A DNA stretch of 15,872 nt from Opitutales bacterium (GTDB lineage: Bacteria > Verrucomicrobiota > Verrucomicrobiia > Opitutales > JABSRG01): NCBI GenBank assembly GCA_049599475.1, contig JBMYOQ010000084.1:1-15872 (forward strand), written 5' to 3'. Each line of letters opens with the position of its first letter. The first letter of the stretch is position 1. Below are positions 264 through 15,472 of this stretch, piece after piece. The notes below the pieces were generated by a model that worked only from the letters and a program-made list of their open reading frames with translations, was not told the origin of the DNA and searched no databases. A program made the position numbers and the translations under genes.

Positions 264-1385
264 CTAAACCGAAACGCCTGCCTCGGCCTTTGCCTTTTTG
301 CGCGCGTTTGATCGGGTGACCGCCTCTTCTACATCCATTGATTTGGATGTGAAATCTGCGTGGCCTGGCATCAGCAAGCTGCGGATTTCGCCAGCGGCTT
401 CTGTCGCATCCGAGTGATACAAAATGTATTCGGGGTCGTTCGGTGGGCGAGTTTCGTCGGGAGTGCGCATGGCGTTTTCCAGTTTGCCCATGCAAATGGC
501 CTTTGTCTCGTTTTGACCGAAACACAGTCCATAGCCTACCGAATAATGAGGAGCGGATTTTTTGCCACCACTGGCACCACGGCCCACCATTTCGCATTCG
601 GTGACATTGATGCGGCCAATGCAGCGTGTGCGACCGCGCGCATCTTTAACCGAAACGCGTGGGGTGCCGTAGCGTAATTCTCCGATCGTTCCGTGTCCGC
701 CGCCGTAGCCACGTTGGCTAGCATATCCATAAGCCATCAAGGCTCCAGTCTCTGCACGGCTGAGCGTTTGTAGAGCTGCTGCACGCGATTGGGGGTATTC
801 GATAGGCTCGCGGCTGGCATCGTAAACGGGATCTTTTCCGTCAGTTTCCGGATCCTCCGGTTTCATGAGGCCTTGTTCGCGCATCACGTCGATGACGCGG
901 CGGAAGTTGTAAATATCAGCTTCATCGGCTGCTTCCATGCCTGCTAGGAGCTCAGTGCGCAAATTTTCGGCAGATACCTCGTCTTCGTAAGCGATGTCGC
1001 ATTCGAGAAGGCGCTGCGTGTAGTCGCGGGTCGGGCCGAGGACTTGTCCGCCTGGAATTTCGCGGAAGGAGGAGGAGATCCGGCGCTCCATGAGCATGTT
1101 GGTCGTATCGATGACCTCGCTCGTGTATTTTTGCTTAAGCTGGATGCGGTGTGCGCGTAAAATTTCGGCCGCTTCGATGGCATCCCCTTCGGTTTGCTTC
1201 AGGGCAATTGCTGCAAGTTCGGGTGCAAAGAGCCCTGACTCGCTGAGGACGCGGTCCACCAGGAGGCGCATCTGACCGAGGATTTGCTCGATTTCTGCGG
1301 GTTCTGTTTGCTCGCGCAGGCGGTAAAACTCGGAGAGCTCGGCTGCGTTTTGAAGGGCTGACTCGATAGCGCTTACGGAATTCAT
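264..1385 (-). CDS. phnI: Divergent PhnI paralog (C-P lyase complex subunit I-like), 373 aa
   Basis: Colinear by eye with the operon PhnI: LALKQxEGD-like AIALKQTEGD, ERRISSSFREIPGGQVLGPTRDY, LSRAETG, GELRYG, GYGLCFGQNETKAI. The C-terminal HLKLPHY motif is replaced by SLLMPGH and the N-terminal YVAIKGGE is lost. Confidence 0.9.
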   Translation of the reverse strand: MNSVSAIESALQNAAELSEFYRLREQTEPAEIEQILGQMRLLVDRVLSESGLFAPELAAIALKQTEGDAIEAAEILRAHRIQLKQKYTSEVIDTTNMLMERRISSSFREIPGGQVLGPTRDYTQRLLECDIAYEDEVSAENLRTELLAGMEAADEADIYNFRRVIDVMREQGLMKPEDPETDGKDPVYDASREPIEYPQSRAAALQTLSRAETGALMAYGYASQRGYGGGHGTIGELRYGTPRVSVKDARGRTRCIGRINVTECEMVGRGASGGKKSAPHYSVGYGLCFGQNETKAICMGKLENAMRTPDETRPPNDPEYILYHSDATEAAGEIRSLLMPGHADFTSKSMDVEEAVTRSNARKKAKAEAGVSV

Positions 1386-1393
1386 TGAGCGAG

Positions 1394-1426
1394 ATACTAC
1401 CCCGTAATGTTAAGCAGCGATAAACA
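1394..1426 (-). promoter_or_regulatory. Putative Pho box plus -10 element for the phnI paralog
   Basis: Minus strand reads TGTTTAT-cgct-GCTTAAC (11-bp period), 9 bp, TAGTAT, 8 nt, ATG. The geometry matches the sites upstream of phnG and phoB. Confidence 0.6.
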
Positions 1427-1600
1427 GGTTTGGGGATTTTGCGGTGAACCTGTGCGCGGGGATTTGGTATGAGCATCCGTATCGGAACTCCAATGTGAAG
1501 TGTCTACCTTTTCTGATAGACCAACATCAAGTTCACCCAATCAACACTTGCGGTTTCGGAATGGTCACATTTGTCGTGGTTTCGCAATAAAGCTCCCGAG

Positions 1601-1633
1601 ATGTTACTTTCGGGTGATTGTGTTTGATAAAAT
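1601..1633 (+). promoter_or_regulatory. Putative Pho box plus -10 element for phoBR (autoregulation)
   Basis: ATGTTAC-tttc-GGGTGAT, 9 bp, TAAAAT. Same spacing as the other two promoters, with a weaker second half-site. Confidence 0.5.
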
Positions 1634-1654
1634 CTTAGCGACCATGGCTCGTTA

Positions 1655-2356
1655 ATGTCGGAACAATTCGAGGTCGTAATTATTGAGGATGAGGTGGATA
1701 TCTTGGCGCCGCTTCAATTCTGTTTTGAAGCGGAGGGCTTTGTGGTGCATTCTGCGGAGGATGGAATTCAGGGCTTGAATCTCGTTCGCCGCCAAGTGCC
1801 AAACCTGATCATTCTGGACTTGATGCTCCCGCGCATGGATGGCCTCAGTCTGTGTGAGGAAGTGCGCAGCGATTTCAGGACACGAGATATTCCGGTGATT
1901 ATGCTGACGGCTCAGGACAGCCAAATGGATGTCATTAATGGTTTGAGTCGAGGCGCTGATGATTACGTCACCAAGCCTTTTTCAACGCGTGAGCTCGTCG
2001 CACGTGCGCGGGCTGTTTTGAAGCGGGGTCGATTTGTTGATTCTGAAGATGCATTGCTGCGCTTAGGGCCGCTGACTTTATCTGAAGGGGAGCAGATTGC
2101 TCTATTGAATGGCCAAGATGTGCGCCTCACCCCTACGGAGTTTAAGCTCTTGCACTTTTTGGCTGTGAATGCGGGGAATGCATTTACCCGCAATGACTTG
2201 TTGGACAAAGTGTTTGGCGAGGATGCCTATGTCATTGATCGCAATATCGACGTGCATATCCGGGCGATTCGGAAGAAGTTGGATTGGCCTGAGCTTATTT
2301 TGACTTTGCGCGGGTTTGGCTACCGTCTTGAGCTTCCGAAAGGTCCTGAAGCCTAA
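1655..2356 (+). CDS. phoB: OmpR/PhoB-family response regulator, probably the phosphate regulon regulator
   Basis: Receiver motifs IIEDE, ILDLMLP, MLTA and GADDYVTKPFS. Winged-helix motifs LTPTEFKLL, RNIDVHIRAIRKKL and TLRGFGY. Adjacent to a PhoR-like kinase and phn genes. Confidence 0.85.
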   Translation: MSEQFEVVIIEDEVDILAPLQFCFEAEGFVVHSAEDGIQGLNLVRRQVPNLIILDLMLPRMDGLSLCEEVRSDFRTRDIPVIMLTAQDSQMDVINGLSRGADDYVTKPFSTRELVARARAVLKRGRFVDSEDALLRLGPLTLSEGEQIALLNGQDVRLTPTEFKLLHFLAVNAGNAFTRNDLLDKVFGEDAYVIDRNIDVHIRAIRKKLDWPELILTLRGFGYRLELPKGPEA

Positions 2357-2371
2357 CCGCAGCTAAATTTT

Positions 2372-3910
2372 GTGAGCTTTTTTTTGCGTCTGTTTTTGGG
2401 CTTTACCCTAATGGTTTTGGTCATTGCGGGCGGGATCAGTATTGTTTCGATTCACAGCCTGAGATCCTTGGCGGAACAGCGCATTTTGGATGAGTCGATA
2501 GTGAACGCCCAAACCTCTTCAGTTATGAATACTGGGGTTTCAGAAGAGCTGGATGCTGCATTTTTATTGGAGGGTTTAAATGAAGCGGCGTTGAAAGAGG
2601 AAACCCTTGCCATTGTCCAAAGCGTTTCGTTGGCTGCTGGGGTAAGCGTCTTGGGGTGTTTGGCATTTGGTTGGTTTTTTGCGAAACGGTTGACGCAGCC
2701 CCTCGCCGTGATTGACGAAGGTTGCCGAAAGATCCTGGTGGGAAATTTGAATTACCAAATTGATTTGCCGCGAGGTGATAATGGAGGGCGTGTGGCTGAG
2801 ACGATCAATAAAATGACGCAGGAGCTTAGCAAACGTATCCAGCAGTCCAGTCAGCAGCGGAACCGTATGGAATTAATATTACAATCCTTGCAGGATGCGG
2901 TGTTAATGGTCGATCGCCAGGGCACGATTATTTTCTTCAACTCTGCGGCAGGGGAGTACCTGGATATGTATGACAGATCATGGCCCTTTACCGTCGAAAA
3001 GCACGTAAAGCTCGAAGTCTTGAGGAAAGAAATATTTCGGCAGGCAGAGAAAGCGGCTTCGTCGCGCACCGTCTTATCTTGGGAGGGAGAAGCGGCCGAA
3101 AAGCGCTATGTGGAGCTCTTTACAGAGCCTTTGGATGGTGATCGTCATGACACGGATGGCATCCTGTGTGTGATGCGCGACCAGACTCAGGAGCGACGCT
3201 TTGAAGACCTCCGTCGCGCTTTTTCCTCGAACGTCTCTCATGAGCTCAAAACACCTATCGCTGCGATTGGAGCGCTGCTCGAGACGATCGAGACCTACCC
3301 AGAAATGGTAATGGAACAGCGCACGCATTTTAACCAACGGATTCGCCACCAGAATGATCGCATGCTACGCTTGGTAAACGAGCTTCTGGCGCTCTCTAAA
3401 TTAGAAAGCGGCAGTGAGATTCTCGACCTCTCAAACTGCGATTTAACTGAGATCCTCGACTCGGTTCAAAACACATTTTTGCTTCTGGCGGAGAAGCGGA
3501 ACATTTCGTTGATTTTCGCCTTTGATCGGGAGGCAGATTTTAATCTTACAGCCGACGCCAAAGCACTGGAAATTATCTTGAATTCGCTCATCGACAACTC
3601 CCTGCGGCATGGTCCGCGAGAAGGATGGGTGCGCCTCGATGCCAAACGGCAGGAAACGGATATCGAGATTCAAATTTCTGATAATGGCCCGGGCATTCCA
3701 CCAGATGCCCAGCCACGGATTTTCGAAAGGTTTTATCGAGTCGAAGAGTCCCGTTCGCGGGATCGCGGTGGCAGCGGTATGGGCCTCGCGATTGTGAAGC
3801 ATTTAGTCCAAGCCCACCAAGGCACAATCGATCTGATAAGCAGCAATCGAGCAGGGACGATTTTTAAGATTGTTCTGCCCTGCGATTTGAATGCGCGAGA
3901 TTTAAGCTGA
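2372..3910 (+). CDS. phoR: PhoR-like sensor histidine kinase (2 TM, HAMP, PAS-like, HisKA, HATPase); GTG start
   Basis: H-box SNVSHELKTP, N-box variant NSLIDNSLRHG, G1 SDNGPGIP, IFERFYRVEESRSR and G2 GGSGMGLAIVKH. It has two N-terminal hydrophobic segments and starts 15 bp after the regulator. Confidence 0.85.
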   Translation: MSFFLRLFLGFTLMVLVIAGGISIVSIHSLRSLAEQRILDESIVNAQTSSVMNTGVSEELDAAFLLEGLNEAALKEETLAIVQSVSLAAGVSVLGCLAFGWFFAKRLTQPLAVIDEGCRKILVGNLNYQIDLPRGDNGGRVAETINKMTQELSKRIQQSSQQRNRMELILQSLQDAVLMVDRQGTIIFFNSAAGEYLDMYDRSWPFTVEKHVKLEVLRKEIFRQAEKAASSRTVLSWEGEAAEKRYVELFTEPLDGDRHDTDGILCVMRDQTQERRFEDLRRAFSSNVSHELKTPIAAIGALLETIETYPEMVMEQRTHFNQRIRHQNDRMLRLVNELLALSKLESGSEILDLSNCDLTEILDSVQNTFLLLAEKRNISLIFAFDREADFNLTADAKALEIILNSLIDNSLRHGPREGWVRLDAKRQETDIEIQISDNGPGIPPDAQPRIFERFYRVEESRSRDRGGSGMGLAIVKHLVQAHQGTIDLISSNRAGTIFKIVLPCDLNARDLS

Positions 3911-3923
3911 TATGACGGTTGGT

Positions 3924-3953
3924 TTAACCACGAAGAGCGCGATGAGTACGAAG
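3924..3953 (+). repeat. Left arm of an imperfect 30-bp inverted repeat flanking the GxxExxY gene
   Basis: ttaaccacgaagagcgcgatgagtacgaag matches the reverse complement of 4486-4515 at 21/30 positions without gaps (hand count). The accacgaag and acgaag ends are exact. Confidence 0.7.
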
Positions 3954-4062
3954 GCTGGATTTCTGGTGAGCGCGGGAGATGGATTCGTGTTCCGGTGGGT
4001 AAGTTCGTTGTGTTTGTAAAACTTAACGTGAAAACAACAGCGGCTCTTGCGTCGAATATGTC

Positions 4063-4434
4063 ATGGAATTCGATCCGCTCTCAAAAATGGTCATAGGAAG
4101 TGCCATAGAAGTGCACAGGTCTTTAGGTCCAGGCTTGTTGGAATCATCTTACCATAAGTGTCTCTGTCATGAACTGAAGTTGCGTGAAATTTCATTCGAA
4201 AGCGAAGCCTCATTACCTATCGAGTATAAGGGGGAAGTCATAGACTGCGGCTATCGAATAGATATTCTGTTCGAGCGTAGCCTGATCGTAGAATTAAAGA
4301 GCGTCCGATCCCTGGAACTTATTCACGAGGCCCAACTGCTCACCTACCTGAAACTTTCCGGGGTAGGAGTGGGCCTGTTACTCAATTTCAATGTTCTAAG
4401 AATGAAAGACGGTATAAAACGTTTTGTGCTCTAG
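4063..4434 (+). CDS. GxxExxY protein (PD-(D/E)XK nuclease-like), 123 aa
   Basis: Signature VHRSLGPGLLESSY, nuclease-like RIDIL...IVELKS, HEAQLLTYLK and GLLLNFNV. The length is typical of the family. Confidence 0.92.
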   Translation: MEFDPLSKMVIGSAIEVHRSLGPGLLESSYHKCLCHELKLREISFESEASLPIEYKGEVIDCGYRIDILFERSLIVELKSVRSLELIHEAQLLTYLKLSGVGVGLLLNFNVLRMKDGIKRFVL

Positions 4435-4485
4435 TTTCGAAGTATAGAAAATTGAACGTTTTCGAAAAAAGTACCCGCGTAACAG

Positions 4486-4515
4486 CTTCGTGTTCTCAGT
4501 GACCTTCGTGGTAAA
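4486..4515 (-). repeat. Right arm of the inverted repeat flanking the GxxExxY gene
   Basis: cttcgtgttctcagtgaccttcgtggtaaa; reverse complement is tttaccacgaaggtcactgagaacacgaag. Confidence 0.7.
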
Positions 4516-4542
4516 CAAAAATCCTCAAGAAAAACTGAAACC

Positions 4543-5442
4543 CTACACCCCATTCCAATCAGTCGCCATGATGCGGTTGCTGAGCTCTGGGCCGGCTGTG
4601 AAGCAAAAGTAGATTTGTTCTCGATGGGTAAACCTTACCTCCATCCAGTTGGATCCACTGGTCCCGATGAGTTGTAGGCGTGATTCTGAATCGACCGCAT
4701 ACTCCTTTATCACCGGGCCGGAGCGCGGTAGTTGCGCATGGGGCATCACGGGTGTTATCGGGAAGCGATCTAAGGTCTCCGAAAAAGTGTATGGCATCCG
4801 GATGACCAAATCTGCTCGATCTCTTTGTTTGCGGACACACTCCATATGGGCCGCCAAAACACTGGTGCAGAAACTCCAAAAGACGTTTGCGAAATTTACG
4901 CGACCGTAGCGTTCGTAGAGCCCCCGATAGCTCCGGCGCAGCACGCGGCCAATGGCGCGCATTTCGACGTAAACCACGAAGTCTGCTTTATCGACGATCG
5001 AGCTATGGGCCGAGTAGAGGCCTTCGAAAAGAACGATGTCGCATGGGGTAAGCGTCTGGGTGCCTTCGTGGGAACGTTTTTGAAACACATACTTGGGGAT
5101 CTCGGCGGAGCGTCCCGACCGCAGATCTTCGAGCACTTTGGGGAGGTAGGCGAAGCCATAGTTTTCAGGGGCGTCCTGGCGATACCGGGGATTGAGGTCG
5201 CTCAGTTGCTCGGGCAGATTTTGGAAATTGTCCTGGTGAAATAACAGGGCTTGCGAGTCGAATGCCTTTTTGAGCGATTGCGCGACTTGGGTCGATTTGC
5301 CCGTAGCAGAGCCCCCGCAGATAGCAATGATGACAGGCCGTTGACGCTCGCGCTGAATCTGCTGGATCTGTTTCTTAAGCAGTTCGAAAACGGATGCGTC
5401 CCAGTTGAGTGCGCGATCTGAGTGGACTGTGAGCCGAGTCAT
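4543..5442 (-). CDS. Uridine kinase/phosphoribulokinase-family P-loop kinase with a C-terminal extension, 299 aa
   Basis: IIAICGGSATGKST Walker A, HQDNF, IPKYVF, IVLFEGLY, an RRxxRxxxERxGR-like lid and ADLVI. About 80 extra C-terminal residues. Substrate uncertain. Confidence 0.8.
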   Translation of the reverse strand: MTRLTVHSDRALNWDASVFELLKKQIQQIQRERQRPVIIAICGGSATGKSTQVAQSLKKAFDSQALLFHQDNFQNLPEQLSDLNPRYRQDAPENYGFAYLPKVLEDLRSGRSAEIPKYVFQKRSHEGTQTLTPCDIVLFEGLYSAHSSIVDKADFVVYVEMRAIGRVLRRSYRGLYERYGRVNFANVFWSFCTSVLAAHMECVRKQRDRADLVIRMPYTFSETLDRFPITPVMPHAQLPRSGPVIKEYAVDSESRLQLIGTSGSNWMEVRFTHREQIYFCFTAGPELSNRIMATDWNGV

Positions 5443-5547: not shown

Positions 5548-5580
5548 CCTTCATTTTGTCTTAACACGCGTCCGTAATAT
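5548..5580 (+). promoter_or_regulatory. Putative Pho box plus -10 element of the phn operon
   Basis: CCTTCAT-tttg-TCTTAAC, 9 bp, TAATAT, 9 nt, then the phnG ATG. No SD sequence. Confidence 0.6.
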
Positions 5581-5589
5581 CGGGTCGAA

Positions 5590-6012
5590 ATGGAATACGA
5601 CTCTGACTATATTTTGTGTGAGTGCGACCTCGATGCACTGAAAACACAGGTCGAACGCTTCGAAGAGCGCCTCGCGGTTCGCGTGACCAAGGAACCTGCG
5701 GTTTGCCTGACCATGGTACGCGCTGAGGACTCTCTCGAGCACCAAGAATTTTACCTCGGCGAGGCATTGACCACTGAGTGCGAAGTCGAGATCGACGGCG
5801 CAGCAGGCTACGGCTTGTGTCTCGGTGAGGAGCCCGTCCGCGGCTACTGCATCGCAGTCTTTGACGCGCTTCTTTACGGCAAGGATGAAGCCGACGCCGA
5901 AGCCCAATCTTTCATTTCTGAGCACACCGAGCTCGTTTCTCAAAAGGAACGCCAAGAGTTTGCCCGCACGCTGTCTACACGCGTCGACTTCAAACTCATG
6001 GAAGAAGACTAG
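5590..6012 (+). CDS. phnG: C-P lyase system protein PhnG, 140 aa
   Basis: LTMVRAEDS..EFYLGEALTTECEV, GYG, AVFDALL and C-terminal STRVDFKLM. First gene of the phnGHIJKL run. Confidence 0.92.
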   Translation: MEYDSDYILCECDLDALKTQVERFEERLAVRVTKEPAVCLTMVRAEDSLEHQEFYLGEALTTECEVEIDGAAGYGLCLGEEPVRGYCIAVFDALLYGKDEADAEAQSFISEHTELVSQKERQEFARTLSTRVDFKLMEED

Positions 6013-6030
6013 AATTTATAAAGGGAGAAA

Positions 6031-6102
6031 GGTAGGGGCAAGCGTCCCCGCTTGACCTTCCCAGAACCAAAATGCGGTCAACCGAGGACGGTTGCCCCTA
6101 CC
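6031..6102. repeat. Inverted pair of GTAG-type REP hairpins (REPIN-like doublet)
   Basis: ggtaggggcaagcgtccccgcttgacc (6031-6057, +) and the reverse complement of 6076-6102, ggtaggggcaaccgtcctcggttgacc. Confidence 0.85.
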
Positions 6103-6149
6103 AAATATTCAAAAGCCGATTTAACGGAATTATCCAATTTACCAATACC

Positions 6150-6761
6150 ATGATAGCACGCGAAGTCGTATTCGACGAAATTTTCGATTCCCAGGTATTA
6201 TTCCGATCCATTTTTGACGGAATGTCACGTCCAGGGAAAATCAATACTCTCAAATCTGTAGACATTTCTCCTCCAGAAGGCATCACGCGCGCTGCGTCAT
6301 TGGTGGCTTTTTCCCTTTTGAATGATGATGTCTCTGTGATGCTCGCCGAGCCAAATGAGGAAGTCGCTGATTACCTGCGCGGTAATACCGCGGTGCGCGA
6401 AGCTTCCGTTGCAGATGCTGATTTTATCATCGGGACTCCTGAGAATACGCTCACACTTATCGAACCATCCAAAGAAGGTGATCCGCTCTATCCTGAGCAA
6501 TCAGCGAGCTTTGTGTTGATGCTCGAAGATTTCGCAGAGGAGCCCGTGCAGGACGGACTTTGCCTTTTACTTTCAGGGCCTGGCATTAAGGATACTAAGA
6601 AAATTTTTGTATCCGGTTTTTCAGACAAATGGATACAGGAGCGCGCGGAGAAAAACTGTGAGTTCCCGCTGGGTGTCGACGTCATTTTGACCACTGAGAA
6701 AAATGGCGAGTGCTTTGTGACCTGCCTTCCGCGCACAACTAAAATCGAAGTCGTTCTTTAA
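6150..6761 (+). CDS. phnH: C-P lyase system protein PhnH (start revised from 6072 to the ATG at 6150)
   Basis: DSQVLFRSIFDGMSRPG, GDPLYPEQSA, LSGPGIK, FPLGVDVIL and CLPRTTKI. The upstream in-frame extension from 6072 runs through a REP. Confidence 0.9.
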   Translation: MIAREVVFDEIFDSQVLFRSIFDGMSRPGKINTLKSVDISPPEGITRAASLVAFSLLNDDVSVMLAEPNEEVADYLRGNTAVREASVADADFIIGTPENTLTLIEPSKEGDPLYPEQSASFVLMLEDFAEEPVQDGLCLLLSGPGIKDTKKIFVSGFSDKWIQERAEKNCEFPLGVDVILTTEKNGECFVTCLPRTTKIEVVL

Positions 6762-6784
6762 TTTTTTAGGAAAAAGGGAATCGA

Positions 6785-7957
6785 ATGGGATACGTAGCAA
6801 TTAAAGGAGGCGAAACAGCAATTCAGAATGCTGAGCGCCTAGTCGCTTTTTATCGAGTAAAGAGCAAGACCACGCCTCTCGAAGTGGAGCAGATTCGTAC
6901 CCAGTTTCGTAAGGCACTGGATAAGATTATGAGCGAAGGCTCACTCTACGCTCCAGAGCACGCTGCGCTTGCGCTCAAGCAAGTGGAGGGAGATTTATTT
7001 GAAGGCGCTTTCATGCTCCGCGCATTCCGTGCCACGCTGAACCGCTCTTATTTTTCTGAGATGCTGGATACGGATTCGATGCAGATCGAGCGCCGTGTTT
7101 CTTCAGCTTTTCGCGATATCCCGGGTGGGCAGGTTTTAGGGCCGACACGTGATTACGTTTTGCGTCTCCTGAATACGGATATCGTTAAAGAATCATTGGG
7201 CTCTGTTTCCAGTTTCCTGTCCGAGCAAGAGCGTAAAGAGTTGGCTGAAGGCGCTTCGCCGGATGCGTCTCAATTCCCGCGGATTATCAATTTCCTCAAG
7301 GAGCGTGGGCACCTGAAGCCGTCTCCTGAAAAGAAGAACGAGCGCGTATTTGATGTGACTCGTGAAGCGGTCAAATACCCGGCACCGCGCAGCGCCACCA
7401 TGCAGATGCTGGCACGTGGCGAGCAGGGCGGCATGACCTCGATGGCCTACAGTTCTGTGCGCGGTTTCGGTGATATGGAGCCGAGTGTTGGCGAATTGCG
7501 TGTTGGAAAATGCCAAGTAAAGGTGCGCGATCGCCGCAACCGTGTGCGCTGCATCGGACGCATTCGCCTCACCGAGGCCGATGTCGTTACCAAGGTGAAA
7601 GAGGGCAACCGTGACAAGGTGCCTTACATGACGCACGGTTACGGACTCTGCTTCGGACAGAACGAGCTAAAGGCCGTGAGCATGGCCATTTTGGACCGCG
7701 CAATCCGCTACGGCGATGAGGAAGAACCCGCCTGCCAGCAAGAGTTTGTCCTCTACCACACAGAAGGCGTCGAATCATACGGATTTACCAACCACCTCAA
7801 GCTGCCACACTATGTGACTTTCCAAAGCGGTCTGAGCAATGTGCGCCAGGCTATGCAGCGCAAGGAAGAAGCTCAAAGGAAGGCTGCCTTTGGGGTGACG
7901 GGAACAGATGCCAAGAAGATTAAGGATATTCCTGATCCACGCAGCATGTATCGCTAA
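6785..7957 (+). CDS. phnI: C-P lyase complex subunit PhnI, 390 aa
   Basis: MGYVAIKGGE, ALKQVEGDLFEGAFMLRAFR, RRVSSAFRDIPGGQVLGPT and GFTNHLKLPHYVTFQ (H337/H342 intact). Confidence 0.96.
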   Translation: MGYVAIKGGETAIQNAERLVAFYRVKSKTTPLEVEQIRTQFRKALDKIMSEGSLYAPEHAALALKQVEGDLFEGAFMLRAFRATLNRSYFSEMLDTDSMQIERRVSSAFRDIPGGQVLGPTRDYVLRLLNTDIVKESLGSVSSFLSEQERKELAEGASPDASQFPRIINFLKERGHLKPSPEKKNERVFDVTREAVKYPAPRSATMQMLARGEQGGMTSMAYSSVRGFGDMEPSVGELRVGKCQVKVRDRRNRVRCIGRIRLTEADVVTKVKEGNRDKVPYMTHGYGLCFGQNELKAVSMAILDRAIRYGDEEEPACQQEFVLYHTEGVESYGFTNHLKLPHYVTFQSGLSNVRQAMQRKEEAQRKAAFGVTGTDAKKIKDIPDPRSMYR

Positions 7958-7983
7958 AAAGTGTATCGAAAAATTTAGATATT

Positions 7984-8901
7984 ATGATCGAGACAAAGAA
8001 ATTTGAACGTAGCTACAACTACGGTTTTATCGATGAGACGACGAAGAAGGAAATTCGCCGCAAGATGCTAAAAGCGGCGGCGATCCCTGGCTATCAGGTT
8101 CCTTATTCTTCTCCTGAAATGCCGATCTCTCGCGGGTGGGGCACCGGCGGCCTGCACGCTACTCTCTCGCTTATCGGTAAGGAAGACGTATTCAAAATTA
8201 TCGATCAGGGCAGCGATGCGAGTGTCAACGCCTGCAACTTGCGCGACTTCGTCAAGCGCATGACTGACTGCGAGACGACTTTTGATACTGCCGACGCGAC
8301 CATCATTCAGACGCGTCACCGGATCACTGAGGAGGTTTTAAACGAGAACCAAATCATCGTGTTCCAAGTGCCACAGCCGGAGATTCTTCGAAGTGTTGAG
8401 CGCTACGAATATAAGACTCGTCAAATGCACGCAGAGGCGGATTACGCCAAGATGTGGGTGAGCCTTTACGAGAGCTACGTGAAGTTCGGCGCAATCATGC
8501 GCGGAGCGGGATACCCTGTCCGTGTAAATGGTCGCTACGTCATGAGCCCATCTCCGATTCCACGTTGGGATGTACCTAACCTCAGTGACTCAGATAATAT
8601 CAATGTTTTTGCAGCAGGTCGTGAGAAACGCATCTACGTCGTCCCACCACACACGACTGTCGAGCCGCTGGAATTCGAAGACGTGCGTTTCACTGTTGAA
8701 AACTTTGACGGAATCAAATGTGCGGCATCCGGTGAAGACGATGCATTCATGGATGAAATCTACGCAACAGACGGCTCTCAGAGTTATGTGATCAACGATT
8801 CCAACTTCTTAGACAAGGTCCGCGTCCCCGATCACGAGCGCCCGAAACAGCGCCTGTTTAAATACCAACAAGAAAAGAACATAGGGGCATCTCGCCTGTA
8901 G
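7984..8901 (+). CDS. phnJ: PhnJ homolog (PRPn C-P lyase-like) lacking the canonical CX2CX21CX5C motif, 305 aa
   Basis: YNYGFIDETTKKEIRR, AIPGYQVP, GWGTGG, KIIDQG, IQTRHRI, PSPIPRWD and AGREKRIY. The C-terminal segment reads CAAS...YVINDSNFL. Confidence 0.95.
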   Translation: MIETKKFERSYNYGFIDETTKKEIRRKMLKAAAIPGYQVPYSSPEMPISRGWGTGGLHATLSLIGKEDVFKIIDQGSDASVNACNLRDFVKRMTDCETTFDTADATIIQTRHRITEEVLNENQIIVFQVPQPEILRSVERYEYKTRQMHAEADYAKMWVSLYESYVKFGAIMRGAGYPVRVNGRYVMSPSPIPRWDVPNLSDSDNINVFAAGREKRIYVVPPHTTVEPLEFEDVRFTVENFDGIKCAASGEDDAFMDEIYATDGSQSYVINDSNFLDKVRVPDHERPKQRLFKYQQEKNIGASRL

Positions 8902-8925
8902 TCTGAAATTTTAAATCTCTCCAAA

Positions 8926-9780
8926 ATGGTTTCACTTTCCAAAGACGAACAATGGTTGCTCCGCGTGCGCGGTTTGCAAAAAATCTACGGCGAGCCTTGC
9001 TCAAGCACCATTCAATACACAGGCCCTAAATTTGGGTCGAACATCTGCCCAGAGACCGACGCTATCGTTGCATGTGCTGAAGTAGATTTTGATCTTTATC
9101 CAGGTGAAGTGCTGGGTGTTGTGGGCGAATCTGGATCGGGTAAGTCGACCCTCGTTCAGCTCCTTTATTTTGACAATGAAGCCACCGGCGGAGAAGTTTA
9201 TTTCCGTGACTTCGAAGGCGGGCAGACCAATCTGCTGACGATTTCAAATCAGAAAAAACGCTACATGCGCAATCACCTCATGGGGATGGTGTATCAGAAT
9301 CCACGTGACGGTTTGAATTTCAAATTTTCGGCGGGCGGTAATATCGCAGAAAAGCTTTTGATGGCCGGTAATTTCCACGTCGGAAATATCCGCGATCGTG
9401 CGAGTGGCCTTCTCGACAAAACAGAAGTTCCGGTAAAGCGCATGGACAGCATGCCCGGCCACTTCTCAGGCGGTATGCAGCAGCGTGTGCAAATCTCAAA
9501 AGCAATCGCGAACAACCCGCCGATCGTCTTCCTCGACGAGGTGACCACCGGTCTCGACGTCTCCGTTCAGGCTAAGGTTCTGGACCTTATCCGTGGTCTC
9601 CAGCAAGAGCTCGGAATTTCCATGATTGTTGTGTCCCACGATTTGAGTGTCATCCGTATGCTCACTGACCGCACCATGGTCATGAAAAATGGGCGCATCG
9701 TCGAATCAGGATTGACCGATCAAATTCTCCAAGACCCGCAACACGCTTACACACAACTCCTCGTAAGCAGTCTTCTCTAA
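8926..9780 (+). CDS. phnK: C-P lyase system ABC-type ATPase PhnK, 284 aa
   Basis: FDLYPGEVLGVVGESGSGKST, YQNPRDGL, AGGNIAEKL, FSGGMQQR, LDEVTTGLDVSVQA and ESGLTDQILQDPQHAYTQLLVSS. Confidence 0.94.
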   Translation: MVSLSKDEQWLLRVRGLQKIYGEPCSSTIQYTGPKFGSNICPETDAIVACAEVDFDLYPGEVLGVVGESGSGKSTLVQLLYFDNEATGGEVYFRDFEGGQTNLLTISNQKKRYMRNHLMGMVYQNPRDGLNFKFSAGGNIAEKLLMAGNFHVGNIRDRASGLLDKTEVPVKRMDSMPGHFSGGMQQRVQISKAIANNPPIVFLDEVTTGLDVSVQAKVLDLIRGLQQELGISMIVVSHDLSVIRMLTDRTMVMKNGRIVESGLTDQILQDPQHAYTQLLVSSLL

Positions 9781-9798
9781 TCATCTTACTATTTGTCA

Positions 9799-9826
9799 GG
9801 TAGGGGCATGCGTGCCCGCTTGACCT
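9799..9826 (+). repeat. Single GTAG-type REP hairpin (degenerate)
   Basis: ggtaggggcatgcgtgcccgcttgacct, two mismatches from the copy at 6031-6058. Confidence 0.8.
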
Positions 9827-9854
9827 CCTGAACTCCTAAAATTTTAGAAATTCC

Positions 9855-10583
9855 ATGACACCGATTCTCGAAGTCAACAATCTGCGCAAGTCATTTCTGC
9901 TCTACATCCTGAATGACAAAAAGATCGAAGCTCTCGACGATGTAACCTTCAGTCAAAATGAGGGAGAAATTGTTGGCCTCACAGGTAAGTCGGGTTCGGG
10001 TAAGTCCAGCCTCATGAAGTGCATCTATCGCACTTACCTGTGTAACTCTGGCGAGATGATCTACCAATCTGAGATTTATGGATCGATTGATTTGCTGAAG
10101 GCCACCGAGCACCAAATCCTACGCATTCGCCAAGAGGAAATGACCTACTGCTCGCAGTTCCTCAGCGTGATTCCACGGGTTCCTGCCGTCGAAGTGGTTG
10201 CAGCTCGTTTGCTCCAAGAAGGGGTCGCCTACGACGAGGCTATGGAGCGTGCACGGACCATGCTCGATAAGCTCGGCCTGCCACGTGAGCTTTGGGACGC
10301 ATTTCCTTCAACATTCTCTGGCGGTGAGCAGCAACGTATTAACGTCGCCCGTGCAATTCTTGGTAAGCCACGCTATCTCTTGATCGACGAGCCTACTGCA
10401 TCGCTTGACCCGAAGACCAAAGACGTCGTCATCGACATGATTTTGGGCCTCAAGGATGCAGGCACTTCAGTAATGCTCATCACCCACGACAAATATGCTC
10501 TCGAGCGCATGTCGGACCGCCGCCTCCACTTGGCACATGGTCGTCTGGAAGAGGTTGAAGTGGCATCGACCCTAGCGCTTTAA
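9855..10583 (+). CDS. phnL: C-P lyase system ATPase PhnL, 242 aa
   Basis: GKSGSGKSSLMKCIYRTY, SQFLSVIPRV, LWDAFPSTFSGGEQQRINVAR and DEPTASLD. Confidence 0.94.
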   Translation: MTPILEVNNLRKSFLLYILNDKKIEALDDVTFSQNEGEIVGLTGKSGSGKSSLMKCIYRTYLCNSGEMIYQSEIYGSIDLLKATEHQILRIRQEEMTYCSQFLSVIPRVPAVEVVAARLLQEGVAYDEAMERARTMLDKLGLPRELWDAFPSTFSGGEQQRINVARAILGKPRYLLIDEPTASLDPKTKDVVIDMILGLKDAGTSVMLITHDKYALERMSDRRLHLAHGRLEEVEVASTLAL

Positions 10584-10590
10584 TCGATCC

Positions 10591-11544
10591 ATGAAAAAGT
10601 GTATCCAGAGAGGCCTTACAGCAAGTATTGCTTTAGCTCTCTCTGCTTTCTTAGTCGGTTGTGGTTCGGATGAGCCGGAAACAATCGTAATGGAAAATGG
10701 CGAGGTCTGGCCTGCGAAGGTAGTCTATGCTTACACGCCCTCGCAGGAGGAGCCGGAAGGGCGCTTAGAACGCTATGAAAAGCTTGCCGAGTATCTCACT
10801 TCGCAGATCGGTGTAGACGTTGAATTGATACGCTCTTCGAACTACGGTCCCACGATCGAAGCGATGCGTGCTGACAAAGTGGATATCGCCTCTGGCGGAT
10901 CATTCATGTATATGATCGCTCACGAAAAGGCGGGCGCTGAAGCGATTGCAACGCGTGGTTCGATAGGAGGGGAACGCGACTCTTACCACTCACTCATCGC
11001 GACAAGTCCGAAGACGGGAATTAAAACGCTCGAAGATTTGATCGCGGGTGGAGAGGAATACTCCTTTGCGTTCACAGATGCGGCATCGACATCGGGTCAC
11101 CTCGTGCCGCGAGGTGCTTTCGAATCGATGGGCGTGAACCCAGAAGATGTCTTCAAGGAAGTCGTGTTTACGCAAAGTCACTTAAACGTCGTGATGGCGA
11201 CCGTTGCTGCAAAAGTCGATGCTGGGGCTATGAATGGTAGCACCTACACGCGATTTATTCGGGATGGGAGAATTAAGGAAGAAGAACTCATTGTGTTGTG
11301 GAAATCGGGTGACATTCCGACCTCACCGATTTTCGTTCGCAGCGAACTTCCCGAAGGCCTGAAGGCTGCCGTCCGCGAAGCCTACGTAAATATGCACATC
11401 CACGCTCCCGATCTATTGCAGGGCTTCCGTGACAGAGCGATGCGCCCCAATATGGTATACATCGAGGCGAACGACGCGATGTGGGATGGTTTGCGCGAAA
11501 CAGCTTACAACCTCGATACGATGACACTCCTCAGTGGGGGATAA
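10591..11544 (+). CDS. phnD: Phosphonate/phosphite ABC transporter substrate-binding lipoprotein PhnD, 317 aa
   Basis: Signal peptide with lipobox LVGC, YGPTIEAMR, FAFTDAASTSGHLVP, SH and LWKSGDIP. Followed by phnC and phnE. Confidence 0.9.
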   Translation: MKKCIQRGLTASIALALSAFLVGCGSDEPETIVMENGEVWPAKVVYAYTPSQEEPEGRLERYEKLAEYLTSQIGVDVELIRSSNYGPTIEAMRADKVDIASGGSFMYMIAHEKAGAEAIATRGSIGGERDSYHSLIATSPKTGIKTLEDLIAGGEEYSFAFTDAASTSGHLVPRGAFESMGVNPEDVFKEVVFTQSHLNVVMATVAAKVDAGAMNGSTYTRFIRDGRIKEEELIVLWKSGDIPTSPIFVRSELPEGLKAAVREAYVNMHIHAPDLLQGFRDRAMRPNMVYIEANDAMWDGLRETAYNLDTMTLLSGG

Positions 11545-11583
11545 TAAGGTGGGACCTATGGCATACGTATCGACAGTTCAAAG

Positions 11584-11721
11584 GGTAGGGGCAACCGTCC
11601 CGGTTGCCCTCACTGATGGTTCTGCTGGCGGCTGCGCCTTGAGGTCAAGCGGGGACGCTTGCCCCTACCTGTTTAGGGTATTTAGGGCATTTGGGGTAGG
11701 GGCAACCGTCCCCGGTTGCCC
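11584..11721. repeat. Cluster of three GTAG-type REP hairpins (+,-,+) between phnD and phnC
   Basis: 11584-11610 ggtaggggcaaccgtcccggttgccct. 11642-11669 reverse complement is identical to 6031-6058. 11695-11721 ggtaggggcaaccgtccccggttgccc. Confidence 0.88.
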
Positions 11722-11768
11722 GCCTCGCGCGAATTCAGCCCAACACAATTTCAACTACGGCTACACCC

Positions 11769-12584
11769 ATGCTTGAAGTAAAGAACCTCACAAAGACCGT
11801 AAAAAACGGGAAGACCATTCTAAACGGTATTTCGTTTCGCGTTGAAGCCGGTGAGTTTGTCGGCGTTCTTGGGCCTAGCGGAGCTGGAAAATCATTGTCG
11901 ATTCGCTGTGTGCTTGGGCTGACCAAAGCCTCGTCTGGCGACATCTATTTCGAAGATAATAAAGACCGCATCTATCATTTGACGCAATTGAGCGGTAAGA
12001 AACTCCGCTATGCTCGCATGAAGATGGGTGTGATTTTCCAAGGGTCTAACTTGGTGCGACGGTTAACTGTATTGGAAAATGTGATGCTAGGCCGCTTGGC
12101 GCGCATCCCTTCTTGGCGCAGTTGGTTGTATGGTTTTACTGATGATGAGGCGAGGCGCGCGATGAAGGCGCTCAGCCAAATTGGAATGGGTGAATATGCG
12201 GGCCGTCTTACCGGTTCACTGTCTGGTGGCGAAATGCAGCGCGTCGCCATCGCTCGCGCTATTAATCAAAACCCAGCCTTATACATTGCGGACGAACCCG
12301 TGAGCAGCCTGGACCCGAAGAATGCGCGCTCCATCATGCGTTTGCTTGCCCCGCTTGCGGCGGAGAAGGGAGTCCTCGGCGTCTTTCACCAACCAGACCT
12401 TGTCGCGAAATTCTGCACGCGTATGGTTGGGTTGCGTGACGGGAAAGTAATCTATGATGGCACACCGAGCACCGATCCTGATTTGCTGCGCTCCATTTAT
12501 GGAGAGGAGCTTGACGAGCTGGCCGATATCTCGAATTTGACGCTGCACGAGGATGATCCCTTCGAAGCGCGCGTAAAGGCTTAG
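11769..12584 (+). CDS. phnC: Phosphonate ABC transporter ATP-binding protein PhnC, 271 aa
   Basis: GPSGAGKS, GVIFQ..NLVRRLTVLENVMLGRL, LSGGEMQRVAIARA, ADEPVSSLDP and an HQ H-loop. Confidence 0.93.
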   Translation: MLEVKNLTKTVKNGKTILNGISFRVEAGEFVGVLGPSGAGKSLSIRCVLGLTKASSGDIYFEDNKDRIYHLTQLSGKKLRYARMKMGVIFQGSNLVRRLTVLENVMLGRLARIPSWRSWLYGFTDDEARRAMKALSQIGMGEYAGRLTGSLSGGEMQRVAIARAINQNPALYIADEPVSSLDPKNARSIMRLLAPLAAEKGVLGVFHQPDLVAKFCTRMVGLRDGKVIYDGTPSTDPDLLRSIYGEELDELADISNLTLHEDDPFEARVKA

Positions 12585-12589
12585 AGACC

Positions 12590-13420
12590 ATGGGAAGCGT
12601 CACACAGATGGACCCTTCGCAGCATGCCGCGCTCAAGCCGTATGGTCCCAATAAAAAATGGCGCCTGCTGGGTCGTCTCTTTTTTGTTCTACTGATCGTA
12701 GGTCTTGCCTCATGGCGAGTCGAAGTCGACATCATCACGCTTATCAAAGATCTTCCTGAAGGCTTGGATCGCAGTAAGGATTTCTTTAATCCGCTCTTTA
12801 GCGCGATTCCCGAGCTTATTGTTCCGGCTTTTGTCCTGATTCTTCTAGCACTGATCCCGACGCCGATCGGAGTTATTTTAGCGATCCCTGTCTCCTTTTT
12901 GGCGTCTAGTAACATCGTTCCAGCTTGGGTCCGTAATATCACGCGCACTTGCATCACAATTCAACGGGGAGTTCCTGAGATTGTCGTGATGGTCTTGATG
13001 ACGGCTGCCTTTGGATTGGGGGCCTACCCCGGCATTATGGCTATTACGATTGGCTCCATAGGCATGCTGGCAAAACTCTTTGCAGACGCGATTGAAGAGG
13101 TAGAAGAAAAGGCTTTGGAATCCCTTGAGTGCACGGGGGCGACTAAATGGCAGGTCGTGCGCTATGGGATTATTCCCGAAGTCATCCCAACGATTATTTC
13201 GAACTCGATTTTTCGTTTTGAAATCAACATGCGTCAGGCCGGCTTGTTAGGCGCGGTGGGCGCTGGGGGGCTCGGCTATGAGTTGAGCACATCCATGCTT
13301 GCTCTAGAATATGAACGCGCGGCTGCAGTTATCTTGATGCTTCTTCTACTGATATTCGCTGCTGAAAAACTATCCGATTGGTTGCGCTCTAGAATCTTTA
13401 AAGGAGATGATTTTAAATGA
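12590..13420 (+). CDS. phnE: Phosphonate ABC transporter permease PhnE (first copy), 276 aa
   Basis: RGVPEIV, GLGAYPG, GMLAKLFADAIE, RFEINMRQA..LGAVGAGGLG and multiple TM segments. Confidence 0.92.
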   Translation: MGSVTQMDPSQHAALKPYGPNKKWRLLGRLFFVLLIVGLASWRVEVDIITLIKDLPEGLDRSKDFFNPLFSAIPELIVPAFVLILLALIPTPIGVILAIPVSFLASSNIVPAWVRNITRTCITIQRGVPEIVVMVLMTAAFGLGAYPGIMAITIGSIGMLAKLFADAIEEVEEKALESLECTGATKWQVVRYGIIPEVIPTIISNSIFRFEINMRQAGLLGAVGAGGLGYELSTSMLALEYERAAAVILMLLLLIFAAEKLSDWLRSRIFKGDDFK

Positions 13421-14241
13421 GCGAGAGTATCGAAGTGCCATCCGAACTGCTCCCATCGCGTAAGTTCCTCAAAAACCTTGGAATTTTCGCGGGCATACTC
13501 GGCTTCCTGATTGCTGCCTTTATTTACCTGGGCACGAACCCCTTCATGTTCTTCACGGAGTTTCATTACGTAGCGAATCTATTTAAGGATATGGTGCCGC
13601 CGAATGCTGATTTGTTTGTATCGGAAAAGTTATGGGCTTCCATGGCCCAAACGGTATCGATGGCATTTCTTGGGACCTTTGGGGGCGGCTTCCTCGCCTT
13701 CGTAATGGCATTTTTCGCTGCGCGCAATACGGCGCCCAATGCGTTTACGCGAGCAGCTTTTCGGGCGTTCCTTGCATTGCAACGTGTCGCCCCGGATTAC
13801 GCGATCATGCTCGTGATTATCACTACGGTAGGTTTTGGCCCCTTCGCAGGCACGATTGCCTTGATTATTGGTTCCACCGGTATGTTCGGAAAATTTTTCG
13901 CGGACGCGATTGAAAACGTGAACAGCAAGCCGCAAGAGAGCGTGCGCGTGCTCGGCGCTTCAAAGACTCAAGAAATCCGATACGGAATCGTGCCGCTCGT
14001 GCTGCCTAGCTTCGTAGCAAATGGATTCTTCCTTTTGGAAATCAATATGGGCGCTGCCATTGCGCTAGGAGTTTATGGCGGAGGGGGCCTCGGCTTCCAC
14101 CTGAACGTTGCCGGAGACACTCTGCAATACAAGGACCTACTCGCCTATGTGCTCTTTATCCTGGTGTTGATGATTTGTATCGAGCGTGTCTCAGACTTTT
14201 TCCGCAAACGCATCTTCAACAAAGGGGTCACGCTGAAATGA
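13417..14241 (+). CDS. phnE: Phosphonate ABC transporter permease PhnE (second copy), 274 aa
   Basis: ATGA overlap with the first phnE. TVSMAFLGT, GFGPFAG, GMFGKFFADAIE and LEIN..ALGVYGGGGLG. Confidence 0.92.
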   Translation: MSESIEVPSELLPSRKFLKNLGIFAGILGFLIAAFIYLGTNPFMFFTEFHYVANLFKDMVPPNADLFVSEKLWASMAQTVSMAFLGTFGGGFLAFVMAFFAARNTAPNAFTRAAFRAFLALQRVAPDYAIMLVIITTVGFGPFAGTIALIIGSTGMFGKFFADAIENVNSKPQESVRVLGASKTQEIRYGIVPLVLPSFVANGFFLLEINMGAAIALGVYGGGGLGFHLNVAGDTLQYKDLLAYVLFILVLMICIERVSDFFRKRIFNKGVTLK

Positions 14242-14255
14242 TGCGTGCCCCTACC
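14224..14255 (-). repeat. Variant GTAG REP-like hairpin overlapping the last codons and stop of the second phnE
   Basis: Reverse complement is GGTAG-GGGCACGC-atcatttca-GCGTGACC-cc. It has the same GGTAGGGGCA head and G/A stem mismatch as most of the other copies. Confidence 0.6.
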
Positions 14256-14278
14256 TTTTATTACAAAATTACACGATT

Positions 14279-15472
14279 ATGTCTAACGCCACTATCATAT
14301 CCAATGCGCGTGTTGTAACGCGTACCGAAAATTTTGAAGGTTCTGTTGTCATTGAAGACGGAATTATCGCAGAAATTATCAAAGAACGCACCTACGCCGA
14401 AGGCATCGATGCGAGGGGTCGCTGGTTGACTCCGGGGGTGATTGATACCCATACGGATTACATCGAAAAGGAAATCGCGCCCCGTCCCAGTGCCGAAATT
14501 CCTCTAGAGCTTGCCTTTCACATGATGGATCAGCGCGCAATTGCTACGGGCTTGACGACCGTGCTGGGTGCGGTCCGCGTATCGGCTGACAAGGAAAAGA
14601 AAGGCTCCATGTGGCGCCGTGATGGGCTTGAGCTAGGACGCCGTTACGAAGAGCTATCCAAGACGGCGAAGGCACGCCACCTCATGCATGTGCGCTGGGA
14701 TACCAATTTCCAGCCTGCTGACCCCAAGATCGATGTCCTCAAAACGTTCACTACTTTAGGCAACATCGTCTACAACGAGAATATCCCCGGCGAGCGTCAG
14801 TTCCGTGATCTTAAAGAGCTCGCGAAGAAATTTGCAGATCGCCAGGGAATCACACCCGAAGAGGCACTCAAGAACCTTCAGGAGAAAATTGAAACCAATC
14901 GAGGCATCAACAATCGTCCTCAGGTGCGTGATACATTTTCCGGCAATGTACCTCTCGGCAGTCATGACGACACGACGATCGAACACGTGATCGAAGCCCA
15001 TGCCATGGGGTGTTCGATTGCTGAGATGCCCACTACATCGGAAGCCGCACAAAAGGCCAAAGACCTCGGCTTAATAGTCATCATGGGCGCGCCCAATTAC
15101 TACCGTGGCGGTTCTCACTGCGGCAATGTAGGAGCTCCGGAAGCTTTTCAAAAGGGACTCATGGACGTACTATGCAGCGACTACCATTTCCCATCCCTCC
15201 TTGGCAGTGTGTGCAAAATGTTTGCTGAAGGTATCGACCCTTCAAAGGCCGTAAACTTGGTCACCTACAATGCCGCAAAGGCTCTCAACCGAGACGAAAA
15301 AATCGGCTCGATCGAAGTCGGAAAGCTCGCAGACCTCACGCTCTTTGCTTCGCACCCAAATTATGCAGAAGTCACCCACACCTGGATCGGCGGCGAACTC
15401 GTCTACCAAAGCACACACGCAGTAGGTGTAGAACGCCACCAAGACGCCAGGCAGCTGCTCAATCAGCTATAG
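14279..15472 (+). CDS. phnM: Alpha-D-ribose 1-methylphosphonate 5-triphosphate diphosphatase PhnM (amidohydrolase fold), 397 aa
   Basis: PGVIDTHTD, GSHDD, AEMP, MGAPN..RGGSH.GNV, LCSDY and GSIEVGKLADL. Confidence 0.94.
   Translation: MSNATIISNARVVTRTENFEGSVVIEDGIIAEIIKERTYAEGIDARGRWLTPGVIDTHTDYIEKEIAPRPSAEIPLELAFHMMDQRAIATGLTTVLGAVRVSADKEKKGSMWRRDGLELGRRYEELSKTAKARHLMHVRWDTNFQPADPKIDVLKTFTTLGNIVYNENIPGERQFRDLKELAKKFADRQGITPEEALKNLQEKIETNRGINNRPQVRDTFSGNVPLGSHDDTTIEHVIEAHAMGCSIAEMPTTSEAAQKAKDLGLIVIMGAPNYYRGGSHCGNVGAPEAFQKGLMDVLCSDYHFPSLLGSVCKMFAEGIDPSKAVNLVTYNAAKALNRDEKIGSIEVGKLADLTLFASHPNYAEVTHTWIGGELVYQSTHAVGVERHQDARQLLNQL

Follow-up and report, generated by a model that had tools for sequence, protein, structure and literature searches.

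A contig of 15,872 nucleotides from an Opitutales bacterium (GenBank assembly GCA_049599475.1, contig JBMYOQ010000084.1), which was analysed at its full length and is called the window below, carries a carbon-phosphorus (C-P) lyase operon whose PhnJ belongs to its family by sequence and fold, yet departs from the radical S-adenosylmethionine (SAM) enzyme in two defining features, the set of cluster ligands and the thiyl cysteine. An earlier, sequence-only reading of this DNA had called the protein Cys-less; by alignment it is cysteine-poor instead, three of the four motif cysteines being lost while one (C246, equivalent to C241) remains, and C84 and C96 are further cysteines conserved across its clade. 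With a single one of the three cluster ligands left and the thiyl Cys272 replaced, it is predicted to be unable to run the accepted radical-SAM mechanism. Beside this PhnJ, a new division of zinc ligands between the operon PhnI and a stand-alone paralogue, PhnI2, is apparent from the residues, and this complementarity of the two copies had been missed. The system is understood here as a phosphorus-scavenging pathway derived from C-P lyase, in which cleavage at a His/Zn site would need neither an Fe-S cluster nor SAM, a reading that we put at about even chances; cleavage of methylphosphonate to methane is not expected of it. No account of a PhnJ poor in cysteines, or of PhnI paralogues that complement each other, turned up in full-text literature searches, which covered neither reviews behind subscription nor the primary papers on the mechanism.

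In the accepted mechanism, as sections of PMC7916636 and PMC11978286 outline it, C241, C244 and C266 hold the cluster and thiyl C272 attacks phosphorus. The phnJ gene of the window (7984-8901, forward strand) matches PF06007 with an E-value of 2.5e-122 and 407.6 bits against a cut-off of 25; its product is about 51% identical to E. coli PhnJ, and the predicted model (pLDDT 70.5) matches the E. coli protein with a target TM-score of 0.82 and a Foldseek E-value of 6.7e-31 to 7Z19. Of the cluster ligands only Cys241 is retained, as C246, while S249 and I270 take the places of Cys244 and Cys266, and the thiyl Cys272 is replaced by L276, a position that is Leu or Met in 185/185 clade rows. Gly32 is present as G36 (185/185 clade rows), and Arg107 (R111), His108 (H112), Gln124 (Q128) and the E. 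coli loop 47-50 are kept as well. With hydrophobic residues as replacements, the former cluster domain may have turned into a metal-free hydrophobic core. A sequencing error or frameshift was considered and rejected, the frame being unbroken through the motif and the same pattern recurring in the best 120 homologues. The source genome (G000; 4.68 Mb, 96.6% complete, its contig C84 being the window) holds no second, canonical phnJ, and the cysteine-poor copy is likewise the only phnJ in 5/5 other clade genomes tested.

The three-position pattern, S/T, I/V/M and L/M at C244, C266 and C272, was found in 185/185 clade rows of one alignment (120 homologues and 65 genome open reading frames, two overlapping sets), whereas all four cysteines are kept in 120/120 sister proteins and 13/13 actinobacterial proteins of the same alignment. 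All of the best 120 of 7,999 homologue matches carry the cysteine-poor pattern. The clade is monophyletic, with an SH-aLRT of 99 in a quick tree of 62 rows and a FastTree support of 0.84, and its carriers belong to Opitutales, Bacteroidota and Acidobacteria, with Mucilaginibacter polytrichastri and Parasediminibacterium paludis as cultured examples; the closest named relatives of G000 are Opitutales/Verrucomicrobiota records with PhnJ identities of 95% and 90%. Among 80 genome loci kept, 66 come from Verrucomicrobiota, Bacteroidota or similar and are cysteine-poor wherever readable (65), and the other 14 are actinobacterial, with PhnJ canonical except in one locus, where it is truncated. Scanning metagenomes for the motif yielded 62 loci, and the 59 with a called PhnJ frame are all cysteine-poor; picked by the motif itself, these loci are no measure of frequency. 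The system is rare: phnJ was found in 0/400 sampled Bacteroidota genomes and in 2/400 sampled genomes of the same phylum, both in the canonical form. A search of 50%-identity representatives returned mostly fragments, with 3 of 18 readable C-terminal motifs belonging to the clade, and a plasmid search returned 215 records, all below 60% identity, six of which were inspected and proved to be five canonical and one cysteine-poor. Two plasmid phnGHIJKL loci (L222:4011-8256 and L223:3903-8241) encode a four-Cys PhnJ in which Gln replaces His108 and Pro replaces Arg40; they have no annotated phnM within 6 kb and adjoin an iron-type ATP-binding cassette (ABC) transporter.

This rarity would suit a decaying or mis-assembled operon without function, as would a TAG stop that interrupts phnJ in frame at codon 158 in G408, a genome of the same family (L099:2594-3511), be it real or an assembly error. 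Such an explanation is very improbable, since the same substitutions recur across phyla with open frames, conserved gene order and conserved upstream boxes, and since both phnJ and phnI2 are under strong purifying selection. Between G000 and its relative G401, the proportions of nonsynonymous and synonymous differences are 0.024 and 0.76 for phnJ, with synonymous sites saturated, and 0.06 and 0.71 for phnI2, where dN/dS is 0.03 with dS near saturation; the latter values point to purifying selection on PhnI2. The PhnJ residues Y41, S42, P44, H58, C84, C96 and Q131 are fixed in the clade.

In the E. coli complex, according to portions of PMC9947105, the cyclic product is bound by R107, H108, Q124 and loop 47-50 in a pocket lined by loop 37-49, the zinc of the closed state is held by PhnI H328/H333, and the cyclic product was modelled at this His site in a complex made without phosphonate. 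In the window proteins the closed-state site is complete (PhnI H337 and H342; PhnJ R111, H112 and Q128), and the product-binding residues are kept, whereas the pocket loop (Y41, S42, P44) and the Q54 position (H58) have changes that are fixed in the clade. The claim that the His site is intact in the operon proteins thus stands for the closed state (H337/H342/H112) and falls for the open state, in which His219 is E232.

In the proposed pathway, PhnDCEE would import a compound X-PO3, and PhnGHIL would ribosylate it with ATP before PhnM removes pyrophosphate, steps suggested by the intact motifs and by what is known of E. coli, whose pathway likewise runs from ribosylation to pyrophosphate removal in the parts of PMC3463581 and PMC9947105 that treat it. 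The ribose 2'-OH would then attack phosphorus at the PhnI-PhnJ His/Zn site and expel X as a polar leaving group, X being an alkoxide, an amine, or a carbon that an adjacent oxo or hydroxy group activates. The product of this attack would be ribose 1,2-cyclic phosphate, from which a 2H-like phosphoesterase and PhnN, both present as genes, are predicted to make phosphoribosyl pyrophosphate. The sequence-only reading, which held that the activation half was kept and the cleavage step rewired, finds agreement in normal GHIL and M motifs, a monophyletic clade without cluster and thiyl cysteines, fixed pocket changes, retained downstream genes and the lack of a radical-SAM neighbour; the chemistry itself we infer.

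Genes for the later steps accompany the system. The 67 clade loci contain the 2H-like phosphoesterase in 40 cases, a TIGR03308 transferase in 38, a PhoB-like regulator in 35, an EEP hydrolase in 22, PhnN in 21, a TonB receptor in 16, a sensor kinase in six and a P-loop kinase in three; in the 36 loci of at least 15 kb the counts are 29 for the 2H-like gene, 28 for the transferase, 18 each for EEP and PhnN, 14 for the TonB receptor and one for the P-loop kinase. In G000 a phnN lies on contig C118 (TIGR02322, 207 against a cut-off of 156), and contig C69 holds phnM2, the 2H-like gene, the TIGR03308 transferase, a GDPD gene and an EEP gene. There is no phnP in the window, and the genome was not searched with the PhnP family; the 2H-like gene on C69 has a weak family match. 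Because phnN, the 2H-like gene and the transferase are present in the genome and linked in the loci, the steps after the cyclic phosphate appear to be retained. Of the companions that the sequence-only reading had named, the extra phnI (17/17 Opitutales-type genomes) and phnN (18/36) recur, and the kinase (3/67) and any credible radical-SAM gene do not. The P-loop kinase, which also adjoins phnG in G411, was rejected as a core part on that count. An exporter-type ABC gene pair recurs beside Opitutales phn genes (L004-L006, L009-L011, L015, L016, L060) and is found in G000 upstream of phnM2 (L123:7254-11029).

Several observations, together with the G408 stop codon, weigh against polar cleavage at the His/Zn site. 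The 2H label is weak (DUF1868, E-value 6e-5, for one representative, and no Pfam match for the G000 copy); the change of R40 to P is shared by two four-Cys PhnJs (L222, L223); the accessory genes are the ordinary set of phosphonate operons, so that the substrates may be unchanged; and ATP spent on esters that phosphatases cleave anyway is hard to justify. In addition, Gly32 and C241 are invariant in 185/185 clade rows, and C84 is conserved in 184 and C96 in 171, as a radical variant would also predict. Under such a variant unactivated alkylphosphonates would still be cleaved by a radical or oxidative route, initiated by a partner in trans or by a redox metal at the His site and aided by Gly32 with Cys84/Cys96/His58 or Cys241. 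The ordinary accessory genes fit this route, as does the place of the cysteine-poor gene as the only phnJ of a nearly complete genome and of its five relatives, and the published mechanism is itself unsettled, with Gly32 about 30 Å from the cysteines (in the relevant part of PMC9947105). Against it, no credible CxxxCxxC radical-SAM gene and no recurrent redox gene was found in the 67 genome loci (flanks of at most 10 kb) or the 62 metagenome loci (at most 6 kb). Two CxxxCxxC matches, one in each locus set, were judged spurious from their position, with no family scan of them: one is in an opposite-strand frame, and the other precedes the point where a long frame probably starts. G000 as a whole has ten radical-SAM matches (MoaA, MiaB, MtaB, HemW, LipA, PflA, HemN, RlmN, NrdG2 and a KamA-family protein), and all but the last score above cut-off for a housekeeping family with a name. 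PflA is above cut-off in G000 and adjoins a glycyl-radical-domain gene; it was rejected as a shared activase, being above cut-off in 0/5 other clade genomes. Gly32, moreover, sits in a family-wide conserved motif, and the radical route is unlikely.

A third explanation retires PhnJ from catalysis altogether and makes it a scaffold linking the PhnK/L motor to the PhnI site solely for ribosylation, the ribosylated product being hydrolysed by the linked phosphodiesterases (2H-like, EEP, GDPD). The PhnK-binding insertion domain of PhnJ is as conserved in the clade as in canonical sisters (0.86 vs 0.86), genes for EEP, GDPD and metallophosphoesterase proteins cluster with the system, and a passage of PMC9947105 suggests that the opening and closing of the complex may belong to the first step. 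A retired PhnJ, however, would hardly keep its product-binding residues invariant and fix new pocket residues, or hold its C-terminal domain at a higher conservation than in the sisters (0.72 vs 0.64), and ribosylation followed by plain hydrolysis would be futile for a phosphonate. The scaffold is distinctly improbable, more so than the radical route.

The PhnI proteins bear on the His/Zn site directly. The operon phnI (6785-7957, forward; PF05861, E-value 4.2e-125) encodes the N-terminal motif and H337/H342, equivalent to H328/H333, with E232 in place of His219. Its full-length paralogue phnI2 (264-1385, reverse; PF05861, E-value 3.5e-100) has the opposite set: His219 is present as H231, S336 and G341 stand at the His328/His333 positions, as had been claimed of a second PhnI with altered metal ligands, and the N-terminal YVAxKGG motif is absent. 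According to the pertinent section of PMC9947105, the zinc site of the E. coli open state is completed by the PhnI N-terminal amine and by His219 of the other PhnI chain, and this ligand in trans was offered by its authors as a reason for the PhnI dimer. In the window, neither PhnI species alone could supply both the N-terminus and His219 to a homodimer. A second phnI was found in 17/17 Opitutales-type genomes tested (14 of 16 Verrucomicrobiota loci together with G000, G408 and G411, duplicate places being counted once). Seventeen readable PhnI2 copies from 16 genomes all keep H219, have Ser in place of H328 and carry a residue other than His at 333, one copy being a fragment; the PhnI2 copies form their own clade (13 rows, SH-aLRT 99, quick tree), and one genome, G405, has two different PhnI2 copies (L090, L094) beside its operon PhnI. 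The operon H219 is lost in 4/17 of these genomes (E in G000, G401 and G408, Q in G402), which are kin, so that the loss is one event; it occurs only where PhnI2 exists, and none of the other readable clade operons has lost this residue.

A PhnI-PhnI2 pair was predicted with a score of 0.86 (best control 0.00), the runs agreeing in at least 85% of contacts with a partner pLDDT of at least 79; this mark was reached by 116/157 solved and 2/215 mismatched pairs, and it shows likeness only, because the similar E. coli homodimer is solved. Since in E. coli His219 of one PhnI chain completes the zinc site of the other, a heterodimer with one site becomes likely. It is probable that PhnI pairs with PhnI2 in Opitutales and that in the family of G000 the pair has divided the zinc ligands (N-terminus, H328 and H333 on one, H219 on the other), so that the core would be asymmetric, with a single complete site. 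Five points speak against such a heterodimer: 9/9 Bacteroidota genomes manage with one phnI, 13/17 Opitutales operon PhnI copies still carry H219, four single-copy actinobacterial PhnIs are without H219, Glu232 itself could bind zinc, and in several PhnI2 the residue next after position 333 is a His. A single phnI above cut-off is also the rule in the 2/2 canonical genomes of the same phylum, as in the nine Bacteroidota. A bolder proposal joins the two halves of the argument into an oxygen-tolerant C-P lyase, free of Fe-S and SAM, that cleaves true C-P bonds at the His/Zn site and, in Opitutales, is assembled asymmetrically from PhnI and PhnI2 around one active site; it is offered tentatively and is rather doubtful.

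The remaining core genes are unremarkable in their motifs. The unbroken forward-strand operon phnG-H-I-J-K-L-D-C-E-E-M (5590-15472) has all frames open, and the core set phnG, H, I, J, K, L and M is complete, in keeping with the intact operon with normal ATPase and PhnM motifs that had been described. It begins with phnG (5590-6012; TIGR03293 above cut-off) and phnH (6147-6761; TIGR03292 above cut-off) and ends with phnM (14279-15472; NF011990 above cut-off), whose metal motifs are normal and match E. coli. By motif and profile comparison, phnK (8926-9780) and phnL (9855-10583) encode normal Walker A, signature and H-switch motifs that match E. coli, and both score slightly below their TIGR cut-offs. 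PhnK has an N-terminal insert that holds only part of the CxxC..CxxC motif seen in canonical relatives (L081, L082), with one Cys kept inside it in 96/104 clade proteins. The altered PhnK ligands of the sequence-only reading are therefore altered only relative to those relatives, as E. coli PhnK is without the insert and actinobacterial PhnKs lack these cysteines beside canonical PhnJ. The idea that PhnK and PhnJ lost their cysteines together, as parts of a single functional unit, was rejected, since the actinobacterial PhnK shows no need for it. In the canonical relatives the CxxC..CxxC insert (L081:2334-3179, L082:2343-3209) is a possible extra metal site.

The transporter genes bear on the nature of X. 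The phnD-family gene (10591-11544, forward; Pfam match and residue comparison) is followed by phnC (11769-12584; profile matches) and by two phnE copies (12590-13420, TIGR01097 above cut-off; 13417-14241, TIGR01097 210 bits vs a cut-off of 217), all on the forward strand. PhnD keeps the phosphoryl-oxygen ligands and has S245 as its cap residue, which is Tyr in phosphite binders such as PtxB and Asp in E. coli PhnD, as stated in parts of PMC5700983 and PMC12718374. An aromatic cap is present in 0/133 clade PhnDs (S in 55, D in 35, G in 25), and none has Trp at the W52 position. Phosphite-specific uptake was rejected, the protein being without an aromatic cap for a P-H...pi contact; the cap favours substituents larger than hydrogen, and phosphite and hypophosphite, once listed among the candidates, appear less likely and no longer lead. 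Elsewhere in the genome, contig C139 has a 72%-identical phnD paralogue (L125) in a cluster that follows an upstream box and also includes genes for a DUF5690 membrane protein and a TIM-barrel protein, and C14 carries another phnDCE-like transporter (L126).

An 18-bp upstream box, with two 7-bp half-sites and an 11-bp period, precedes phnG and phnI2 in G000 and in relatives. The box resembles Pho boxes. It lies 23 nt before the phnG start (5549-5566, forward; score 25.5) and 22 nt before the phnI2 start (1408-1425, reverse; score 15.1), and the shared promoter geometry noticed earlier is real. The same box before both suggests that phnI2 and the phn operon are probably co-regulated. Sites 21-24 nt before phnG, phnN, phnM2, the C139 phnD cluster and phnI2 rank 1, 2, 4, 5 and 18 among the 20 G000 sites scoring 15 or more; the matrix was trained on 13 sites from other genomes and is partly circular, with phnG-site duplicates of two relatives in the training set, while the phnM2 and C139 sites are without a training counterpart. 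The box is not enriched across the genome (58 sites vs 81-99 in three shuffles), which counts against the proposed pathway. A sigma-70 promoter scan gave 13 sites vs 13.3 expected, and the box with a minus-10 pattern is not enriched at any spacing.

The candidate reader of the box is the adjacent OmpR/PhoB-family response regulator (1655-2356, forward; PF00072 and PF00486), divergent from phnI2 and followed by a PhoR-like PAS sensor histidine kinase (2372-3910, forward). The linked PhoBR pair proposed earlier is present as a PhoB-like regulator and a sensor kinase, but both score below cut-off (TIGR02154, PhoB, 215 vs 296; TIGR02966, PhoR, 259 vs 334), although these families remain their best or near-best named matches, and other PhoB-like regulators occur elsewhere in G000. 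Between this pair and the operon lie a GxxExxY protein gene (4063-4434, forward; TIGR04256), a passenger outside the system with four more copies in the genome, and a uridine-kinase/PRK-family P-loop kinase gene (4543-5442, reverse; PF00485), a local associate divergent from phnG. The window has no phnF, phnO or phnP, and a search of viral contigs gave no match. A stretch of about 53 bp at both contig ends (1-55 and 15818-15872) is repeated on many other G000 contigs, which suggests that the assembly breaks at a repeated insertion-sequence-like element flanking the region on both sides. Short GC-rich palindromic repeats (resembling REP elements) occupy the gaps phnG-H (6013-6146), phnK-L (9781-9854) and phnD-C (11545-11768), and occur on a few other contigs as well.

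The C-P lyase mechanism has been called an unresolved conundrum with the role of the His/Zn site open, in the part of PMC9947105 that discusses it. A natural, selected lineage without the cysteine site but with the His site separates the roles of the two; if the bolder proposal of true C-P bond cleavage at the His/Zn site holds, catalysis throughout the family would centre on the His site rather than the cysteine site. The division of ligands between the two PhnI puts the 2023 proposal of an in-trans His219 zinc ligand to an evolutionary test and suggests half-of-sites working. There are practical consequences too. phnJ is counted as a marker for methylphosphonate-driven methane (in a portion of PMC10734540), and the clade may be miscounted as such or be dropped unnoticed under residue filters of the kind described in part of PMC9381506. 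An oxygen-tolerant P-X lyase, if true, would be easier to study and use.

Among known systems, the best structural-database matches of the window PhnD are PtxB and HtxB (PDB 5JVB, 5O2J, 5ME4), which share the oxygen ligands but differ from the 133 clade PhnDs by their Tyr cap and their Trp at the W52 position. For PhnJ, a parallel is the plasmid protein of the cultured Rhizobium sp. AB2/73 (NZ_CP067072.1, L224:7332-12607), which keeps only C241 of the four cysteines, has S, L and G at the other three positions and carries Tyr at F37; it differs in keeping R40 and Q54 and in its place on the tree, where it falls outside the clade on a long, uncertainly placed branch. As it also retains C241 alone, the loss of PhnJ cysteines may have occurred twice. 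In the PhnI of this strain Phe replaces H328, and the 9 kb around the locus gave no phnDCE match. For PhnI, the parallel is found in eight tandem phnI pairs of Streptomyces (L067-L069, L076-L080), in which one copy has the N-terminal motif and H328/H333 without the H219-region His, and the second lacks the motif and keeps the H219-region His, with both H328 and H333 kept in 7/8. This split is a separate duplication on the tree and concerns adjacent genes beside a canonical PhnJ.

The sister group with four-Cys PhnJ comprises L081, L082 and 120 homologues, a part of which carry Verrucomicrobiota or Deltaproteobacteria names; it has a PhnJ 57-59% identical and shares the GHIJKL order and the PhnK N-terminal insert but differs in the four cysteines of PhnJ (120/120), the CxxC..CxxC motif of PhnK and a single phnI (2/2). 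The reference for all of them is the E. coli C-P lyase Phn(GHIJ)2K2L2 (PDB 4XB6, 7Z15-7Z19; EC 4.7.1.1, PF06007, PF05861), with the same gene set of GHIJKLM and DCE. The window system shares with it the PhnJ fold, Gly32, Arg107, His108, Gln124, PhnI His328/His333, the ABC and PhnM motifs and a genomic PhnN. Unlike E. coli, C244, C266 and C272 of PhnJ are replaced, the pocket loop and Q54 are changed, C84 and C96 are gained, and a PhoB-like regulator, a TIGR03308 transferase and a 2H-like gene stand instead of phnF, phnO and phnP. In conclusion, where E. coli builds its core on a PhnI homodimer, the window system has two PhnI proteins with complementary zinc ligands.

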